This document shows, piece by piece, positions 1-5,642 of a stretch of DNA of 5,642 nt. Numbering within the stretch: position 1 is the stretch's first letter; the number at the start of each line of letters is the position of its first letter. The DNA lies in IMG/VR virus record IMGVR_UViG_2698536484_000011, positions 1 to 5,642 of that record; one strand, 5' to 3'. Below the pieces are notes generated by a model that saw only the letters and a list, made by a program, of their open reading frames with translations, did no database searches and had not been told where the DNA came from. This DNA comes from a virus (taxonomy: Duplodnaviria; Heunggongvirae; Uroviricota; Caudoviricetes). A program made the translations under genes and the position numbers.

Positions 1-71
1 AATTCACTGTCGGCGAAGGTAAGTTGATGACTCATGATGAACCCTGTTCCATGGCTCCAGATGACAAACAT
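1..71 (-). CDS. Possible 5' end of an unidentified gene running off the left edge (N-terminus MFVIWSHGTGFIMSHQLTFADSE...); partial
   Basis: Minus-strand ATG at 71..69 opens a frame that stays open to position 1, preceded by an in-frame stop at 83..81 and only a weak GAG Shine-Dalgarno. The plus strand is also open from 3 to 104 (stop TAG 105..107), so this could instead be the 3' end of a plus-strand gene. Too short to decide. Confidence 0.2.
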   Translation of the reverse strand, partial: MFVIWSHGTGFIMSHQLTFADSE

Positions 72-119
72 GATCTCATATCAGGGACTTGTTCGCACCT
101 TCCCTAGAGTAGATTACAC

Positions 120-358
120 CGGAAATACCCAACCCGACCAGAATAAAGTAGATCAAGAAGATAATTATAACTTCCCTATTTATACTTAAAAAACCATTAT
201 TAAAAATAATTTTTCTTTCCAAAATCAGACCCCACATTTAATAAGACAACATGATTTATTAATTATCTAAAAATCTCTGCAATGATATTGTATTACATAA
301 ATCTTCAAATAACATTAATCATTCTATCTTGAAACTTGTCTTAAACAAGATTACCTCT
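120..358. other. AT-rich non-coding spacer, possibly a horizontally acquired junction or promoter region
   Basis: Long A/T runs (e.g. ttattaaaaataatttttctttcc, taattatctaaaaatc) contrast with the GC-richer phage genes to the right. No ORF with a start and ribosome-binding site was found. A TATAAT hexamer on the minus strand (179..174) exists but is expected by chance in AT-rich DNA. Composition judged by eye, not computed. Confidence 0.45.
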
Positions 359-525
359 TTACTCTGCTGAGTCAAACAGCCTAGCCCACTCACTTGTATC
401 ACTCATCTTTAACATCGCAGCGTAGTTTCTAACTGGAGCATACCGAATATGACCGCTATTAACATTATGCCGTAACTGCATATTTAGATATTGGATTAGG
501 GGCATCGCGCTGACAGAACTCAAAT

Positions 526-545
526 GCGGGCTCTTTGCCGCCCGC
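526..545 (-). terminator. Candidate intrinsic terminator of the dam-A operon
   Basis: GCGGGC (526..531) and GCCCGC (540..545) form a 6-bp GC stem with an 8-nt loop. On the minus-strand RNA it is followed by AUUUGAGUUCUGU, a moderately U-rich tract. It lies about 60 nt 3' of the A stop codon. Confidence 0.35.
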
Positions 546-553
546 CCCCGCAG

Positions 554-597
554 AATCACGCTATCCGACGCAACCAGCTGCGACGGATAGCGTGATT
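554..597. repeat. Perfect 14-bp inverted repeat (long hairpin) immediately 3' of the gene A stop
   Basis: aatcacgctatccg (554..567) is the exact reverse complement of cggatagcgtgatt (584..597), with a 16-nt spacer whose centre is the palindrome cagctg. It is followed on the plus strand by taattcattcttt. Could be a terminator (possibly bidirectional) or a protein-binding site. Confidence 0.6.
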
Positions 598-601
598 TAA
601 T

Positions 602-3214
602 TCATTCTTTAGGGTAGCGACCTTCCGCACCCGCCAGCATTTTTTGATATTCCCCGACCGGATCAAACCGCAGGTGCGTGGCATCAATGCCGTGGTTATC
701 CCGTAAATGTTCCCATAATTTATTCACCGTCCGTGACTCATTAGGTAATTGACGCGTTATCAACTGGCCGCCAGCACTGGCTTGATAAAATTTCCCGCCA
801 ATCTCCAGACGGCTCCCCATTAACAGCGAAACGGCCTGAATCTCTGAAATCTCAACCAAACACAACGCCGCATCAGCCAGCAGACTGGCAACCGCAGGGG
901 CAAGCGCTGCCCGCCTGGCTTTATCAGCCACCGATCTGGCCTCGGTTTTTTCCACGGCAGAACGCCAGGCAACATCTAATTCGCTCCCTGGTTCATAAGG
1001 TGATCCGCTGTGCCGCCTTTTGAATGGTGCTTCACGTAGTCGCCGTATCAATTTGCGCCGCGTTGGCTGGTCCATATTTTCAAAATCGACGATTTCCTCT
1101 TCTGATTCTTCTGTAATACCCTCCACACCAGGCGAAAAATCGGTGATTTTTTCGTCTTCCGTAGAGTTATTGACAGAACTCCAAGCGTCGCCGGTTGGCG
1201 ACGGCAAAAGGTCAACCCCCAAACCGGGGCCGCTTTTGGCCCCAGTGACGGTTTTGGATTTGGCTCGAATTTTCCACTTAACCAGACGGGTGCAAATACG
1301 GGAGGCATCCCCCAGACGCGGCGACCAGACCCCGAAAACCTTTTCGGGGATCTCACAATAAGCATTCATTTCATCAGCGGGCTGATAGGCCAGACGGACG
1401 ACATAGTTTTCTCGCGGGATCAAAACACCACCCTGGCGGATGATGTAAGTAGCAAAGCATCCGACATCGGCAGCGGCGCAAACCGCATCCATTGCAGGAT
1501 CCACAAGCAATGGCGCACCACGTTTGAAGGTACTGTCAATTTTCTGTCGGGTCGTGATCTGATTACTAAGTTTGCGCAGCTCGCGGTAAACCGATATGGG
1601 CGGCTGTCCGATGGGCTGAAACTGGCGGATACGGTGAAGCGATGCCCAGGCCATTGCATATTTGGCGCTTTCATTCAGCGGCTTGCCGCTTTCGTCGTCC
1701 AGTTCACCGGCCAGCGCGTGGCCGTCGATATTCTTCGAAATGTATTTAGCGATGTATGCCGTTGCTGACCCTTTCCGTGGGTCCATTTTTTTTGACTTGA
1801 AACGAGCGCCGGTATTGCGGCCCAGCTCGTCGCGGTCTTCCGCAATGAAGTAGGTGCGAAGGATCGCAACCGTGGCTTTGACTTGCTCTTGTGGCATAAA
1901 CAGCAACGCGTGCCAGTGTGGTGTCCCATCGTGATGCGGCTCGGCGACACGGAAGCCATAAGGGCGCAAATCTTCGCGTTTCAGTTTGGCGGTTGCCCGG
2001 TTCCACACACGGCATAAATAGCACTGCGCCTGGGCGACGGTGGAATGATTCCATTTGGCGTTATGGTGGCCGGATGCAATATTACTGTGATATTTCGACG
2101 GGCAAGTGATTGTCAGGAAGATGCCAACATCGCCGCGACTTTGGGCAACAAGCTCAACCCCAGCCATTCGGGCCATAAGCTCATGGCGACGAATAGCCGG
2201 GTTTGACGTGGATTTATTAATCATGTCCTCAAGTGAGGAAACGTTGCCGTCTTCGTCTACCAGTTCATGACTTTTGAAAAAATCCCGGTTTTTACGGCGC
2301 TGTTCCTGCCACTCGATCAGGCTGGAAGCGCTAACGTATGCGTGCGCTTTTTTATTTACCGCGCCAACGGCTCGCAGCTGGTTTTCGCGCCAGTCACAAC
2401 GCAGGCGCCAGATTTTGCGCCCCCACCAGTCAGGCGAAGCCATACGCAAAATGGCCGTACATATCCGATCACGTTCCCACGGCGCATACCATGCAGGCGG
2501 CACAATGCGAAGCGCCAGCATTTCGCGGCCCAGATGACAATAAAGCCAGTCCAGTTCTTCGACGTTCATGTCGGAAACATTCTGTCCCAGGGCTTCGCAT
2601 TCCGTCCCCAGCATTTCAGCCATGCGGCTGGCGATCTCATTAGCGGCGCTTAGTGCTTCCCGCTTTGTGAAATCAGCCAGCCGTTGCCAGCGCCCGAACC
2701 AGTACGCGGCCAGTTCGCCGGTGATATCAGGCGAAACACCTTGCCTTGTGCGCACAACATCAAGACGCAGCAATGATTTTTTCACTGTCCCCATAAGAAA
2801 ATCATTGGTGTGTCTGGTTTCACGGTTGACCCGTAACCACTCAATTTTTTTACGCCAGACTTCACGAATGAAGAACGGCTCTGATAATAAACGTGCTTCG
2901 ACACCTTCTGGCGTATTGGCCCAGGCTGCCGCCGTGGCTTTAGCGGCTTCCATTTCTTGCCGGATTATATTTTGATGGGCGGCCAGTGGCAGGCCGCATG
3001 GTTCGTACCTGTCCAGCGCCTGGATGAGCGCATCACGGTCACGAACTTCGGCGGGATTGTAACCGGCACGTTTGAAGATGTGATCGATATGTTTTTTTAC
3101 GGCAGGATGATGCGCCACCGCCCCAGCAAGCGGGGCGATTTTTTTCGGTTCATAGATGTACGGGCCAACAGCTGGACGCGGTGCGTTCCAAGGCCATGCG
3201 AAAGCGTTAGTCAT
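602..3214 (-). CDS. Rolling-circle replication initiator (replication endonuclease), phage P2/186 gene A family, 870 aa
   Basis: The translation contains the HUH motif as PHWHALLF (H433-W-H435, nt 1910..1918) and the paired catalytic tyrosines YIAKYISK (Y487 and Y491, nt 1754..1756 and 1742..1744). This signature is shared by the phiX174 A and P2 A initiators. ATG at 3214..3212, stop TGA at 604..602. Long uninterrupted frame in a GC-typical coding region. Confidence 0.93.
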   Translation of the reverse strand: MTNAFAWPWNAPRPAVGPYIYEPKKIAPLAGAVAHHPAVKKHIDHIFKRAGYNPAEVRDRDALIQALDRYEPCGLPLAAHQNIIRQEMEAAKATAAAWANTPEGVEARLLSEPFFIREVWRKKIEWLRVNRETRHTNDFLMGTVKKSLLRLDVVRTRQGVSPDITGELAAYWFGRWQRLADFTKREALSAANEIASRMAEMLGTECEALGQNVSDMNVEELDWLYCHLGREMLALRIVPPAWYAPWERDRICTAILRMASPDWWGRKIWRLRCDWRENQLRAVGAVNKKAHAYVSASSLIEWQEQRRKNRDFFKSHELVDEDGNVSSLEDMINKSTSNPAIRRHELMARMAGVELVAQSRGDVGIFLTITCPSKYHSNIASGHHNAKWNHSTVAQAQCYLCRVWNRATAKLKREDLRPYGFRVAEPHHDGTPHWHALLFMPQEQVKATVAILRTYFIAEDRDELGRNTGARFKSKKMDPRKGSATAYIAKYISKNIDGHALAGELDDESGKPLNESAKYAMAWASLHRIRQFQPIGQPPISVYRELRKLSNQITTRQKIDSTFKRGAPLLVDPAMDAVCAAADVGCFATYIIRQGGVLIPRENYVVRLAYQPADEMNAYCEIPEKVFGVWSPRLGDASRICTRLVKWKIRAKSKTVTGAKSGPGLGVDLLPSPTGDAWSSVNNSTEDEKITDFSPGVEGITEESEEEIVDFENMDQPTRRKLIRRLREAPFKRRHSGSPYEPGSELDVAWRSAVEKTEARSVADKARRAALAPAVASLLADAALCLVEISEIQAVSLLMGSRLEIGGKFYQASAGGQLITRQLPNESRTVNKLWEHLRDNHGIDATHLRFDPVGEYQKMLAGAEGRYPKE

Positions 3215-4101
3215 TCACATATGCCCGTAGAAGTCGCAACCTTGAGAATACCGATCACCTCACTGGCGGCCCCTCGGGTAATGGCGTTCGCGCTGACAGA
3301 ACGGTTAACGCTAATTTCCTGGAAGTTGAAAGAGCGATAAATCTCGCAGGTGGCTGGGGTGTCGCTATTGGACAGGATCACCGGCGAACCAGTAAGGCGG
3401 TTAATATCCAGCAGAGCGGCAGCTAACTGGCGATGCTCTTTAATCCCAAACGGGGCGGTGTGGTATTGGGTGAAATTAGCGGTTTCGCTTGTTGGCAGGT
3501 ATGGCGGATCGCAATAGATAACCGCGTCACTACCAATCATGATTTTTAACGTGCTCTGGAAATCGCAGCACACGAAAATAGCTTTCGTGTCGTTAGCTTT
3601 TTCAGAGAATAAACGGATTTGTTCTTCCGGGAAGTAAGGCGGGGTTTTGTGACGCCCAAAGGGAACGTTATATCCACCCTGTTGGTTGTAGCGTACTACG
3701 CCGTTATATCCGTGACGGTTCAGGTAAAGAAATTGTGCTGCACGAAGAATCTTGCCCGCGTCCGGCCCATCTTCAAACACACTGCGCAATGACAGTAGGT
3801 CACGGGCGCGGGCGTTGAAATCATCGCGGATCCACTTATAGCCGTCTTTATCGCCGTACACTTTAAACAGTGGGCGAGCAGCGTCGATCACCGCATCAGG
3901 CCAGCGGGTTATCTGGCGATACAGGTTAATTAAATCTGGGTTGATATCACCCAGGATATAACGGCGATATTCAGTATTGAGGAAAACAGAAGCACCGCCG
4001 ACAAACGGTTCCACCAGGCAATCGGCTTTCGGCAGAATCGGCAGCAAATCAGGCATAACGCGGCCTTTACCACCGGGCCATTTAACGAGAGATCGAATCA
4101 T
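3211..4101 (-). CDS. dam: DNA adenine methyltransferase, Dam family (alpha-class N6-adenine MTase, probably GATC-specific), 296 aa
   Basis: N-terminal KWPGGK, AdoMet motif I CLVEPFVGGASVFLN, and catalytic motif IV YCDPPY (D198-Y201, nt 3499..3510). Blocks such as FLYLNRHGYNG..YNVPFGR and DPPY..ANFT..YHT align closely with E. coli Dam as I recall it. Start is preceded by a GGAG Shine-Dalgarno; the stop overlaps the A start (ATGA). Confidence 0.95.
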   Translation of the reverse strand: MIRSLVKWPGGKGRVMPDLLPILPKADCLVEPFVGGASVFLNTEYRRYILGDINPDLINLYRQITRWPDAVIDAARPLFKVYGDKDGYKWIRDDFNARARDLLSLRSVFEDGPDAGKILRAAQFLYLNRHGYNGVVRYNQQGGYNVPFGRHKTPPYFPEEQIRLFSEKANDTKAIFVCCDFQSTLKIMIGSDAVIYCDPPYLPTSETANFTQYHTAPFGIKEHRQLAAALLDINRLTGSPVILSNSDTPATCEIYRSFNFQEISVNRSVSANAITRGAASEVIGILKVATSTGICE

Positions 4102-4171
4102 TTTTACTTTCTCCAGGGTGCAAGAAGCCCGACGCGTTAGCGCCTGTTTCTTTTTTGTGGGTAGTTAGTTG

Positions 4172-4561
4172 TTAATTTACTGCGTTATCTGGCGCGGGTG
4201 GTTTGTCGCGTATCGCCTGAATTTCGGCGCGTGGTGCGGCGTAGTCCTCAAATTCCCACGGCATTGATGCTGCAAATTCGGAAAGGCGCTTAATGCCCAT
4301 CAAAAGGCACGTTTGCTCCTTTTCGGTTAGATTTTCGTAAGTACAACCCAGCTGTTTGGCGGTCAGCTTCGGCATTCCGGCTATGTATCTGGACGCATCG
4401 TTTGCCAGGATGAAAATCACCTTTTTACAGGCATCATCCAGGCGGTTAAAACGGGTTGCAGTGTCGTTCACGCGTGAGACGTTCAAACTTGCTTGCAGTC
4501 GAGCCCGTTGCTCTAAGAACTGGCGACGGCCTGGCTGTTGTCCTGTCTTATCCATCAACAT
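4172..4561 (-). CDS. Hypothetical early-operon protein, about 129 aa
   Basis: Frame open from 4567 (GTG) to the stop. I prefer ATG at 4561..4559, which sits 5 nt after a GGAGG Shine-Dalgarno (minus-strand ggggaggtggtt-ATG). Same strand and tight spacing with neighbouring genes. I could not recognise a family from the translation. Confidence 0.7.
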   Translation of the reverse strand: MLMDKTGQQPGRRQFLEQRARLQASLNVSRVNDTATRFNRLDDACKKVIFILANDASRYIAGMPKLTAKQLGCTYENLTEKEQTCLLMGIKRLSEFAASMPWEFEDYAAPRAEIQAIRDKPPAPDNAVN

Positions 4562-4576
4562 AACCACCTCCCCGAA

Positions 4577-4798
4577 CTACGCAAAGATGCCCATTAAGCG
4601 GGAAAACCAGCGGCGCTTATTACGCGGGCGCGACATAAACGGTACACGGCAGTTTTTAACAAATTGAACATCTGCCGCTTTAGGCTGGAAGAACCGCCCG
4701 TCCGGGGTTTCAATCCAGCCGCGTTGATGCTGACGGTGGGTGATCTGCTGGCCGTGGGTGAGCAGGCTGGCGAGTGAAGGGCACTGTGTTAAGTCCAT
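4577..4798 (-). CDS. Small basic hypothetical protein, about 73 aa, first gene of the minus-strand operon
   Basis: The ORF track starts at ATG 4870 (97 aa), but the internal ATG at 4798..4796 is preceded by ACGGAG with 6-nt spacing. The upstream extension lacks a Shine-Dalgarno and overlaps the candidate operator and promoter. C-terminus is Arg/Lys-rich (RPRNKRRWFSR). No helix-turn-helix or zinc-finger pattern recognised. Confidence 0.55.
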   Translation of the reverse strand: MDLTQCPSLASLLTHGQQITHRQHQRGWIETPDGRFFQPKAADVQFVKNCRVPFMSRPRNKRRWFSRLMGIFA

Positions 4799-4936
4799 GT
4801 TGATCTCCGTCATATTGAAAAGATGCCGGGATATAACCCCACGCCCGGCACGTGTTTCCTGTGATAACATCGCTATGCCTGTGTAACTTTGAGCAGTGAA
4901 TCAGGCATAACAATCACCAACACAGAAGGAGTTGTA
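4799..4936. promoter_or_regulatory. Divergent intergenic control region with an inverted-repeat candidate operator
   Basis: Lies between the start of the minus-strand operon and the plus-strand gene at 4937. Contains the 7-bp perfect inverted repeat TGCCGGG (4824..4830) and CCCGGCA (4844..4850) with a 13-bp spacer, atataaccccacg. The spacer carries -10-like hexamers on both strands (TATAAC plus, TATATC minus). A TTGAAA -35-like hexamer sits at 4815..4820. Promoter assignments are by eye only. Confidence 0.45.
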
Positions 4937-5416
4937 ATGAAATTCAATGTGTTTTTTAAAAAAGACCACGGATCACACTGGGTACTTTCCGATGGTTCCC
5001 CCCTCTTTGAAAGTCCACTATTTGAAACAAGACCTAAAGCCATTGATGACCTTGAGAACTTTGTAGGCCTTATGGAATCGCCAATTTTTATTAAGGCTGG
5101 TGACGATATTAATTCTGGCGATACAGAAAACTGTCCATCTGTAGTTATTTCTTTAAAACAGCATGAATCGCTATGGGGCTGGGAGTTATTTATCTCAAAA
5201 AATGGACAACTGTCTAAAGTTACCGAAAGTTCAGGTAATGGCTTTGACTCATTAGAATTAGCAAAGCAAAGTGCCCAGTTTTTTATTAATGCCATTATCG
5301 ACGCTCCTATTCTGGATCAAGCCGATGTCGCTATCCCCGGTATGCACTTCTCAAAATCTTTCGAGGAAACGCACCACATTGGTGACATTCACCCATCCAG
5401 TAAATGGTTCAAATAA
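4937..5416 (+). CDS. AT-rich hypothetical protein, 159 aa; likely horizontally acquired accessory (moron) gene
   Basis: ATG at 4937 is 5 nt after a strong Shine-Dalgarno, GAAGGAG (4925..4931). The tracked upstream start at 4889 is TTG with no ribosome-binding site. Composition is visibly more AT-rich than the flanking phage genes. Two internal segments (HWVLSDGSPLFESPLFETRPKAIDDLENF and WGWELFISKNGQLSKVTESSGNGFDSLELAKQSAQFFINAI) loosely fit a tandem YegP/DUF1508-like repeat pattern; this is unverified. Confidence 0.8.
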   Translation: MKFNVFFKKDHGSHWVLSDGSPLFESPLFETRPKAIDDLENFVGLMESPIFIKAGDDINSGDTENCPSVVISLKQHESLWGWELFISKNGQLSKVTESSGNGFDSLELAKQSAQFFINAIIDAPILDQADVAIPGMHFSKSFEETHHIGDIHPSSKWFK

Positions 5417-5445
5417 TCCATCACTGCGGCGTTATCGTTTTTCTT

Positions 5446-5468
5446 GTGCGAGGTGGAACATCTCGCAC
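5446..5468 (+). terminator. Candidate terminator hairpin after the 159-aa gene
   Basis: GTGCGAG (5446..5452) and CTCGCAC (5462..5468) form a 7-bp stem with a 9-nt loop, followed by gguuucuucauc. It lies 30 nt after the TAA stop at 5414..5416. The U-tract is imperfect. Confidence 0.3.
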
Positions 5469-5538
5469 GGTTTCTTCATCAACCATCAACTCATAAATTC
5501 TGATGCTGTTATCACCGTTTGATACGTCATCAAATACC

Positions 5539-5642
5539 GGTGATGCTGCCAACTTACTGATTTAGTGTATGATGGTGTTTTTGAGGTGCTCCAGTGGCTT
5601 CTGTTTCTATCAGCTGTCCCTCCTGTTCAGCTACTGACGGGG
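5539..5642 (+). mobile_element. IS1 left end (terminal inverted repeat plus insA 5' region); the element continues beyond the window
   Basis: From 5539 the sequence GGTGATGCTGCCAACTTACTGATTTAGTGTATGATGGTGTTTTTGAGGTGCTCCAGTGGCTTCTGTTTCTATCAGCTGTCCCTCCTGTTCAGCTACTGACGGGG matches the canonical IS1 terminus as I recall it. The 9 bp flanking the insertion are tcaaatacc (5530..5538). Confidence 0.92.
5594..5642 (+). CDS. insA: IS1 InsA, N-terminal fragment truncated by the window edge
   Basis: GTG at 5594 followed by codons for [15 protein letters not shown], matching the recalled InsA N-terminus [22 protein letters not shown]. Only 16 codons are in the window. Confidence 0.75.
   Translation, partial: [16 protein letters not shown]

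Follow-up and report, generated by a model that had tools for sequence, protein, structure and literature searches.

Introduction

The P2 genes old, tin and fun(Z), and the systems found in the hotspots of P2-like prophages, are non-essential, AT-rich and variably present, and the main hotspot lies between GpA and GpQ. In lambdoid phages, rexAB and sieB (with the self-protecting esc) are accessory genes that travel with the repressor allele and are expressed in the lysogen, and in sieB/esc such a gene is joined by a factor that shields the lytic growth of the phage itself. Some antisense-controlled toxin loci have a convergent layout. In the annotated record of phage 186, apl, cII, fil and dhr all run in one direction and only the promoter pE points leftwards; the same record lists several anti-terminated terminators in the early region. 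In a 2026 survey, 8% of P2 systems lay in the integrase-primase interval, which was counted among the minor defence hotspots of P2-like prophages.

The fold considered below also has described relatives. Tandem DUF1508 domains have been described as pseudo-dimers, and DUF1508 domains have been likened to the Whirly/PC4 single-strand binders and proposed as sensors in Menshen NsnA. YegP homologues have also been found downstream of the DNA-damage-responsive regulators capK/capS. None of these proteins, the tandem DUF1508 proteins, NsnA or the capK/capS-linked YegP homologues, has a demonstrated function.

The gene studied here encodes a protein of 159 aa and had been annotated, from the DNA letters, as an AT-rich gene divergent from the early operon at the place where a P2-like immunity repressor is expected. 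We found that it is prophage accessory cargo, a well-known kind of gene in P2-like prophages, with an unusual nested and convergent layout. What is new is that it forms a conserved convergent gene pair with a second gene, PHROG 10410, hereafter called the partner.

Genomic context of the window

The window is the whole 5,642-nt stretch that was analysed, positions 1 to 5,642 of the IMG/VR virus record IMGVR_UViG_2698536484_000011, and its features are collected in Table 1. Positions 104-5538 were 100% identical to 19 complete E. coli genomes, and the window is part of a P2/186-like E. coli prophage integrated beside yegR/yegS. The two ends, 1-103 and 5539-5642, matched IS5-like and IS1 elements, respectively, which occur in thousands of records.

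Table 1. Positions of genes, signals and element ends in the window
Feature	Position	Strand	Details
gpA	602-3214	-	early gene
Dam methylase (dam)	3211-4101	-	early gene
127-aa ORF, PHROG 7428	4172-4555	-	131 aa, 4172-4567, if the upstream GTG is used
fil, cell-division inhibitor of the 186 Fil family	4577..4798	-	first early gene downstream of the pair
Conserved GC-rich stem, GCCGGG(N13)CCCGGC	4825..4849		a short T-tract follows on the - strand, immediately ahead of fil
Candidate extended -10 promoter, TGTGATAACAT	4860..4870	+	prediction; TG at 4862-4863, hexamer TAACAT at 4865-4870; no -35 match
5'-leader stem-loop	4874..4909	+	core GCCTG 4877-4881 with CAGGC 4902-4906
Shine-Dalgarno sequence GAAGGAG	4925..4931	+	5 nt to the ATG; AGGAG core invariant in 10 distinct homologous loci
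159-aa gene, coding sequence and stop (WP_000671519.1, PHROG 9021)	4937..5416	+	ATG at 4937
Remnant of the convergent partner ORF, PHROG 10410	5421..5538	-	last ~38 codons and stop; cut by IS1; 115 aa in intact copies
Terminator-like hairpin with U-rich tail	5444..5480	+	12-pair stem in the partner's last codons, V-R-D-V-P-P-R-T
End of the IS1 copy that cuts the locus	5539..5642		identity to intact prophages stops at 5538; the rest is IS1

In uninterrupted copies, the gene order was int(+), a 99-aa helix-turn-helix (HTH) repressor(+), cox(-), the 115-aa ORF(-), the 159-aa gene(+), fil(-), the 127-aa ORF(-), dam(-) and A(-). The repressor position proposed in the initial annotation was thus a misreading, because IS1 truncates the window at 5539: C, cox and int lie further on in intact copies, with the true HTH repressor C and cox about 0.7 kb away. 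The 159-aa gene does run antiparallel to fil, dam and A, as had been stated, but it is not divergent from the early operon, since in intact copies it sits backwards inside that operon, past both cox and the 115-aa ORF. In a canonical P2-type prophage that shares the attachment site, the early operon was wholly co-directional.

The 99-aa protein of the intact copies matched PHROG 147 (E 4e-41) and repressor-type (RstR-like) NCBIfam models. Its gene was divergent from cox, and the intergenic region between them contained two tandem 19-bp direct repeats (ATTAGAG...GATAAT/C; 26049-26086 in locus L001) that overlapped the predicted early promoter and probably serve this immunity type as C operators. 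Because the intact copies carry this PHROG 147 HTH protein and the repeats before cox, the C/Cox switch of the prophage is the normal one, and the 159-aa gene lies in reverse within the early operon.

Several other elements of the early region were recorded. The IS5-like end cuts the 5' end of a 925-aa ORF (window 104-222, minus strand; L001 17342-20119) that belongs to PHROG 10073 and is very AT-rich (GC 0.307). In intact copies it fills the hotspot from gpA to ogr/portal, the old/tin position of P2. It had no match in Pfam, NCBIfam or PADLOC, and we consider it hotspot cargo and a candidate defence gene. Identity of the 127-aa ORF was 97-100% between the loci that were compared (E. coli-type, Citrobacter, Salmonella and IMG/VR), and phage SI7 has an equally long ORF at this position; beyond PHROG 7428 no family was assigned to it. 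In a relative (L026 1-1353), a CD-NTase and Cap15 (CBASS) pair adjoined gpA. An ORF antisense to the 159-aa gene (4873-5295, minus strand) was dropped, as it had no family match and was unannotated in all genomes examined.

IS insertions recurred in the early region, for example at window 5539-5642, L035 6814-8163 and L002 12198-12943, and the 159-aa gene was intact in every such copy. Six E. coli genomes and one IMG/VR contig had an IS3-family element exactly at the hairpin between the 159-aa gene and its partner, and an IS1 lay within the 127-aa ORF in one other genome. The partner was disrupted by IS elements in about 7 E. coli copies and the 159-aa gene in none.

The 159-aa gene and its protein

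The reading frame, its start and its own Shine-Dalgarno sequence were confirmed as annotated (Table 1). The gene was also more AT-rich than dam and gpA, as claimed, with GC 0.396 and GC3 0.356 compared to 0.508/0.539 and 0.537/0.548, respectively. The GC content of its neighbours was 0.47-0.56, and the trend towards low GC was repeated in 11 other loci. The gene was under purifying selection, with dN/dS of 0.12-0.24 in nine pairwise comparisons, and homologues were present in Citrobacter, Kluyvera and Serratia (52-70% identity) and also in Salmonella. From the dN/dS values, the homologues in other genera and a confident AlphaFold model, we conclude that this is a genuine selected gene and not a chance ORF.

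The AF2 model of the 159-aa protein (pLDDT 85, pTM 0.80) consisted of two beta-beta-beta-alpha units, a low-confidence linker, a structured extension and a disordered tail. The beta3-alpha repeats covered residues of about 1-56 and 68-122 and were followed by a conserved C-terminal extension at 123-159. Two internal segments had been seen to resemble each other, and a comparison of profiles of the N-half and the C-half, built on a 23-sequence alignment, bore this out (E 4.9e-6), with W15 falling on W82. That the protein has no helix-turn-helix was also correct: no Pfam HTH family matched, and the model showed two long single helices packed on sheets. The suggestion of a YegP/DUF1508-like protein stood for the fold, which was beta-beta-beta-alpha in the model, but not for the sequence, which did not place the protein in DUF1508. 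The DUF1508 (PF07411) Pfam model had no match among the 18 close members at E up to 10, and a distant member, P0038, reached 17.1 bits, under the 22-bit cut-off. When the halves were aligned with hhalign to stacked YegP repeats, the N-half gave E 0.016 in the right register and the C-half gave nothing, in both cases against a YegP profile that was shallow because the available relatives were all at least 79% identical.

Searches with the 159-aa protein gave no match in Pfam, NCBIfam, PADLOC or a PDB profile search, and Foldseek against BFVD gave no viral structure with significant similarity. Conservation within the family was highest in a C-terminal motif, AP[IV]xDxxGVxIPxxxFS...IxDxHPS, with D150 and P153 invariant and H152 nearly so. 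The protein is mildly acidic and soluble, with a net charge of -10 here and 0 to -8 in relatives; it had no recognisable enzymatic motif, and neither it nor the partner protein had a membrane segment. The string 'IGDIHP' was considered as metallophosphoesterase motif I and rejected as a superficial likeness, since the protein is too short and has none of the other motifs.

The family was small, with 19 clusters at 90% identity among 5.8 billion and 24 representatives among 1.84 billion. The latter include two spurious repeat proteins; P0041 and P0042, long proteins from the exhaustive search, were cadherin/Ig-repeat proteins and were discarded as spurious repeat matches. The family was confined to the early regions of P2-like prophages. 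In locus L025 (13919-14884 and 11741-12073), an AbiH-family abortive-infection gene stood at the far end of the prophage and the chromosomal yegP just outside it. The presence of a genuine yegP about 30 kb from a YegP-like gene appears to be a coincidence.

A conserved convergent partner

The initial annotation had treated the 159-aa gene as a single gene, but it is one half of a deeply conserved convergent pair. A PHROG 10410 ORF of 102-120 aa (longer if N-terminally extended) was found tail-to-tail with it in every locus that reached past its 3' end, apart from the two exceptions given below. In loci with both ORFs intact and uninterrupted, the stop codons were separated by -8 nt (an overlap) to +20 nt, mostly by 4 nt as in this prophage. 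The pairing was seen in E. coli, Citrobacter, Salmonella, Kluyvera, Serratia and unassigned contigs, and it was kept while the identity of the 159-aa protein fell to 43%, 32% and 30%. It occurred in three architectures: between cox and fil with gpA downstream, after fil and adjoining a Toprim primase (S. marcescens), and in loci without any fil. The two families were of similar size, with 19 clusters for the 159-aa protein and 22 for the partner, and many contigs had matching lengths.

The first exception was found in C. braakii prophages, which keep the partner and have an unrelated AT-rich ORF in place of the 159-aa gene, and in which the partner reads through to 183 aa. The replacement (L021/L022 5515-5790) was an unrelated helical ORF of 91 aa with GC 0.42, also backward-facing, with breakpoints of homology at about codon 108 of the partner and immediately before the start codon. 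The second was a distant homologue, L029 (28% identity), which has the 159-aa gene without the partner. A second backward-facing ORF of 159 aa lay in the early operon of this distant relative (L029 5872-6351), with a hydrophobic segment and a weak ATP-synt_I match.

The partner protein had no Pfam match, no HTH and no similarity to CII. Neither protein of the pair matched a toxin, antitoxin or defence model in PADLOC-DB, NCBIfam or Pfam, and PADLOC-DB v2 at E up to 0.1 gave no match for either of them, for the 127-aa ORF (taken from the 131-aa GTG start) or for the 925-aa ORF. The protein accessions and PHROG numbers of the pair were not mentioned in the literature searched.

Distribution and exchange of the pair

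The 159-aa gene was present in 19 of 5,426 complete E. coli genomes, compared to about 1,250 with related C/cox regions, and it was not found in deposited phage genomes. It was missing from the phages SI7, SW3 and SW5, in which Fil is 97% identical, and also from L034, a canonical P2-type prophage that uses the same attachment site. Its rarity, its low GC and its absence from close relatives agree with the view of an accessory, compositionally deviant, non-core gene. A comparison of loci, as had been proposed, showed that the slot is variable: it was empty in SI7 and in a P2-type prophage and held another ORF in C. braakii.

In Salmonella phage SI7, the early operon was otherwise collinear, with cox followed directly by fil, and homology to the prophage studied here broke about five codons inside fil. 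Both genes of the pair were missing together from SI7 and from the P2-type relatives. As SI7 lacks the pair and is otherwise collinear, the pair is dispensable for a P2-like phage. The AT-rich gene does not stand alone, since the AT-rich island consists of both genes (0.396 for the 159-aa gene and 0.405 for the convergent 115-aa ORF) between flanks of 0.486 (cox) and 0.559 (fil).

Compared to the Citrobacter and Salmonella prophages, dS was saturated (0.5-2) for the 159-aa gene, the partner, cox and C, and did not exceed 0.16 for fil, the 127-aa ORF, dam, A and int. Judged by this divergence, the pair is co-inherited with the C-cox immunity block. The 64% protein identity of the 159-aa gene beside near-identical flanks had been considered as a sign of positive selection and this was rejected: with dN/dS of about 0.2 and dS saturated across all four genes, the 64% identity reflects mosaic recombination.

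Signals flanking the 159-aa gene

A consensus sigma-70 scan found no promoter upstream of the 159-aa gene. The candidate extended -10 element in Table 1 coincided with conserved sequence. In a ten-locus alignment, the invariant upstream positions T49, G50, T51, G52, T54, A55, C57 and T59 formed the biggest cluster besides the Shine-Dalgarno sequence, and the ten distinct loci keep TGTG(A/G)TA(A/T)C, with TGnTA(A/T)CnT kept across different immunity types. Neither a LexA box nor a copy of the C operators was found upstream of the gene, and no Rfam family matched in the window.

The predicted 5'-leader stem-loop was present in the MFE fold. Its stem was paired in 94% of the alignment cells and had two covarying pairs (UA/CG and GC/AU), and its score was reached by 4 of 500 shuffles. 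Further upstream, the conserved GC-rich stem showed a compensatory change in L014 (GCCGAG/CTCGGC) and a variable loop. On the minus strand, this stem had the look of a weak terminator before fil in the E. coli-type loci and not in the Serratia-type loci.

The terminator-like hairpin starts 28 nt past the stop codon of the 159-aa gene and folded on the plus strand with -19.7 kcal/mol (z -2.7). Pairing was kept in 98.7% of the cells, and one pair covaried GC/GU/AU through synonymous changes. The plus strand is the one that folds best and the only one on which G.U pairs and a U-rich tail occur. In the shuffle control, 113 of 500 reached the score, so that the covariation was statistically weak; this is because most pairs are invariant and coding. 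Taken together, the conserved extended -10 element, the 5' stem-loop, the Shine-Dalgarno sequence and the one-directional hairpin terminator suggest that the 159-aa gene is an independent transcription unit with a predicted length of about 600 nt.

Discussion

We propose that the pair is a small accessory cassette on the C-cox immunity side of a subgroup of P2-like prophages, and that it encodes a lysogen-state binding protein that is opposed by early transcription. We give this reading a probability of about 0.4. In the lysogen, C would shut off the early promoter, which would silence the partner and allow the 159-aa protein to be made. Upon induction or infection, early transcription would cross the 159-aa gene in antisense to reach fil, dam and A; the partner would then be made and the 159-aa gene would be suppressed by transcriptional interference (collision) and antisense RNA. 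The two products would thereby mark opposite states of the phage. The 159-aa protein may be a prophage-state binder of protein or single-stranded nucleic acid with an exclusion-type role or one that modulates host or phage, and the early partner may cancel or replace its action once lytic growth starts. A role as a binding protein is favoured because the protein has no catalytic signature and because its repeat fold is used elsewhere as a binding or sensor module. Our confidence in any specific binding target is much lower than in the overall picture.

Several points speak against the cassette. An interaction between the two products is something that we purely infer, and the adjacency of the two genes could be explained by co-inheritance alone. 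The pairing has exceptions in the C. braakii prophages and in L029. The promoter is predicted and was missed by the consensus scan, and the terminator stem lies in conserved codons with weak covariation. Neither a defence, anti-defence or toxin-antitoxin match nor a significant viral structural neighbour was found. A more specific form of the cassette, an undescribed 'state switch', is unlikely as it stands. Here, a YegP-like binder made only in the lysogen would exclude or sense rival phages or satellites, or restrain the phage's own early functions, and a partner made only in lytic growth would neutralise it, with exclusivity arising from convergent, overlapping transcription.

It is doubtful that the 159-aa gene is simply a single-gene moron, that is, independent cargo next to an ordinary early gene, the 115-aa ORF, with adjacency coming from a common inherited block. 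Such independence would fit the replacement of the 159-aa gene in C. braakii, its occurrence without a partner in L029, its own Shine-Dalgarno sequence with apparently its own (predicted) promoter and terminator, and a location in the integrase-primase interval, a known minor cargo hotspot. However, the two genes still abut, at -8 to +20 nt, where gpA is exchanged for a Toprim primase, where fil varies in presence and position, and where the identity of the 159-aa protein falls to 30%. Low GC common to both genes, their joint loss from SI7 and the P2-type relatives, and the nearly equal size of the two families also argue for a unit of two genes.

A lysis-lysogeny control module in the slot of 186 cII is rather unlikely. 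In this reading, the partner would have as its target either the switch or the leftward promoter of the 159-aa gene, and the 159-aa protein, or its transcript antisense to the partner and cox, would bias the phage to lysogeny. The gene orders can be aligned in this sense, with apl-cII-fil and a CII-activated leftward pE inside the early operon of 186, cox-[partner, 159-aa gene]-fil here and cox-fil in SI7. The pair also co-segregates with C-cox alleles, and the predicted promoter has no -35 element, as in activator-dependent promoters. On the other hand, the partner is unlike CII, with no HTH or Pfam match, and the conserved hairpin terminator makes read-through into C and int unexpected. SI7 and the P2-type prophage L034 have P2-type C-Cox switches without any gene in the slot, and the variable spacing of the upstream GC stem is unlike that of a protein-binding site.

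We consider it improbable that the pair is toxin-antitoxin-like or an abortive-infection system in which a toxic product is neutralised by the other one. In favour of it are the small size, tight linkage, AT-richness and mobility of the genes, a convergent layout that resembles that of some antisense-controlled toxin loci, and the fact that IS elements disrupt the partner and never the 159-aa gene in the roughly 7 disrupted E. coli copies. Yet the same copies count against a toxic 159-aa protein, which would have to tolerate the loss of its antidote when the partner is cut. Neither toxin, antitoxin nor defence models matched, neither protein has a membrane segment, and convergent, differently timed expression is atypical of toxin-antitoxin pairs that work protein against protein. 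Lastly, although the 159-aa gene shares its strand with C and int and is the first in the truncated window to point away from the early genes, we rejected the idea that it is the immunity repressor or a substitute for one as hardly credible, since intact copies have C, cox and int with a standard 99-aa HTH repressor divergent from cox and operator-like tandem repeats between the two, cox and the 115-aa ORF stand between the 159-aa gene and the early promoter, and the 159-aa protein has no HTH.

A gene placed antisense within an essential early operon, with a predicted terminator inside the last codons of the convergent gene, is a compact natural case of control by convergent transcription. The system is also tractable, with two small genes and with phage SI7 as a natural 'minus' control. 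If a role in exclusion, sensing or biasing of the switch were true, it would be the first function for a YegP-like fold, which is now appearing in Menshen, Bub and CapK/CapS-regulated immune loci without known activity. If there were no phenotype, the 159-aa gene would be one more conserved phage ORF of unknown function.

Comparison with known systems

Compared to P2 old, tin and fun(Z) and the systems of the P2-like hotspots, the 159-aa gene is also non-essential, AT-rich and variably present, and it probably has its own promoter. In contrast to old, tin and fun(Z), it lies outside the main GpA-GpQ hotspot, which is occupied here by the 925-aa AT-rich ORF, and it is nested antisense in the early operon as a fixed pair with an early-operon gene. 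Its protein also differs from those genes' products and from the hotspot systems in having no homology to catalogued defence proteins.

With YegP/UPF0339 (DUF1508, PF07411; for example PDB 2K49, 6Q2Z and 3BID, and E. coli YegP), the modelled 159-aa protein has the beta3-alpha fold in common. The conserved C-terminal extension of about 37 residues is found in the 159-aa family and not in YegP.

The likeness to lambdoid rexAB and sieB/esc is an analogy only, as the pair has no sequence or structural relation to them. The closest parallel in position is the cII-pE region of phage 186. The pair occupies the same slot, between an excisionase/Cox-type gene and fil, and in both phages a leftward promoter (a predicted one here) lies in a rightward early operon and is linked to the immunity region. 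Phage 186 has the leftward promoter only and no leftward gene, whereas here a leftward gene is present and is followed by a terminator-like hairpin, and the partner is unrelated to CII.
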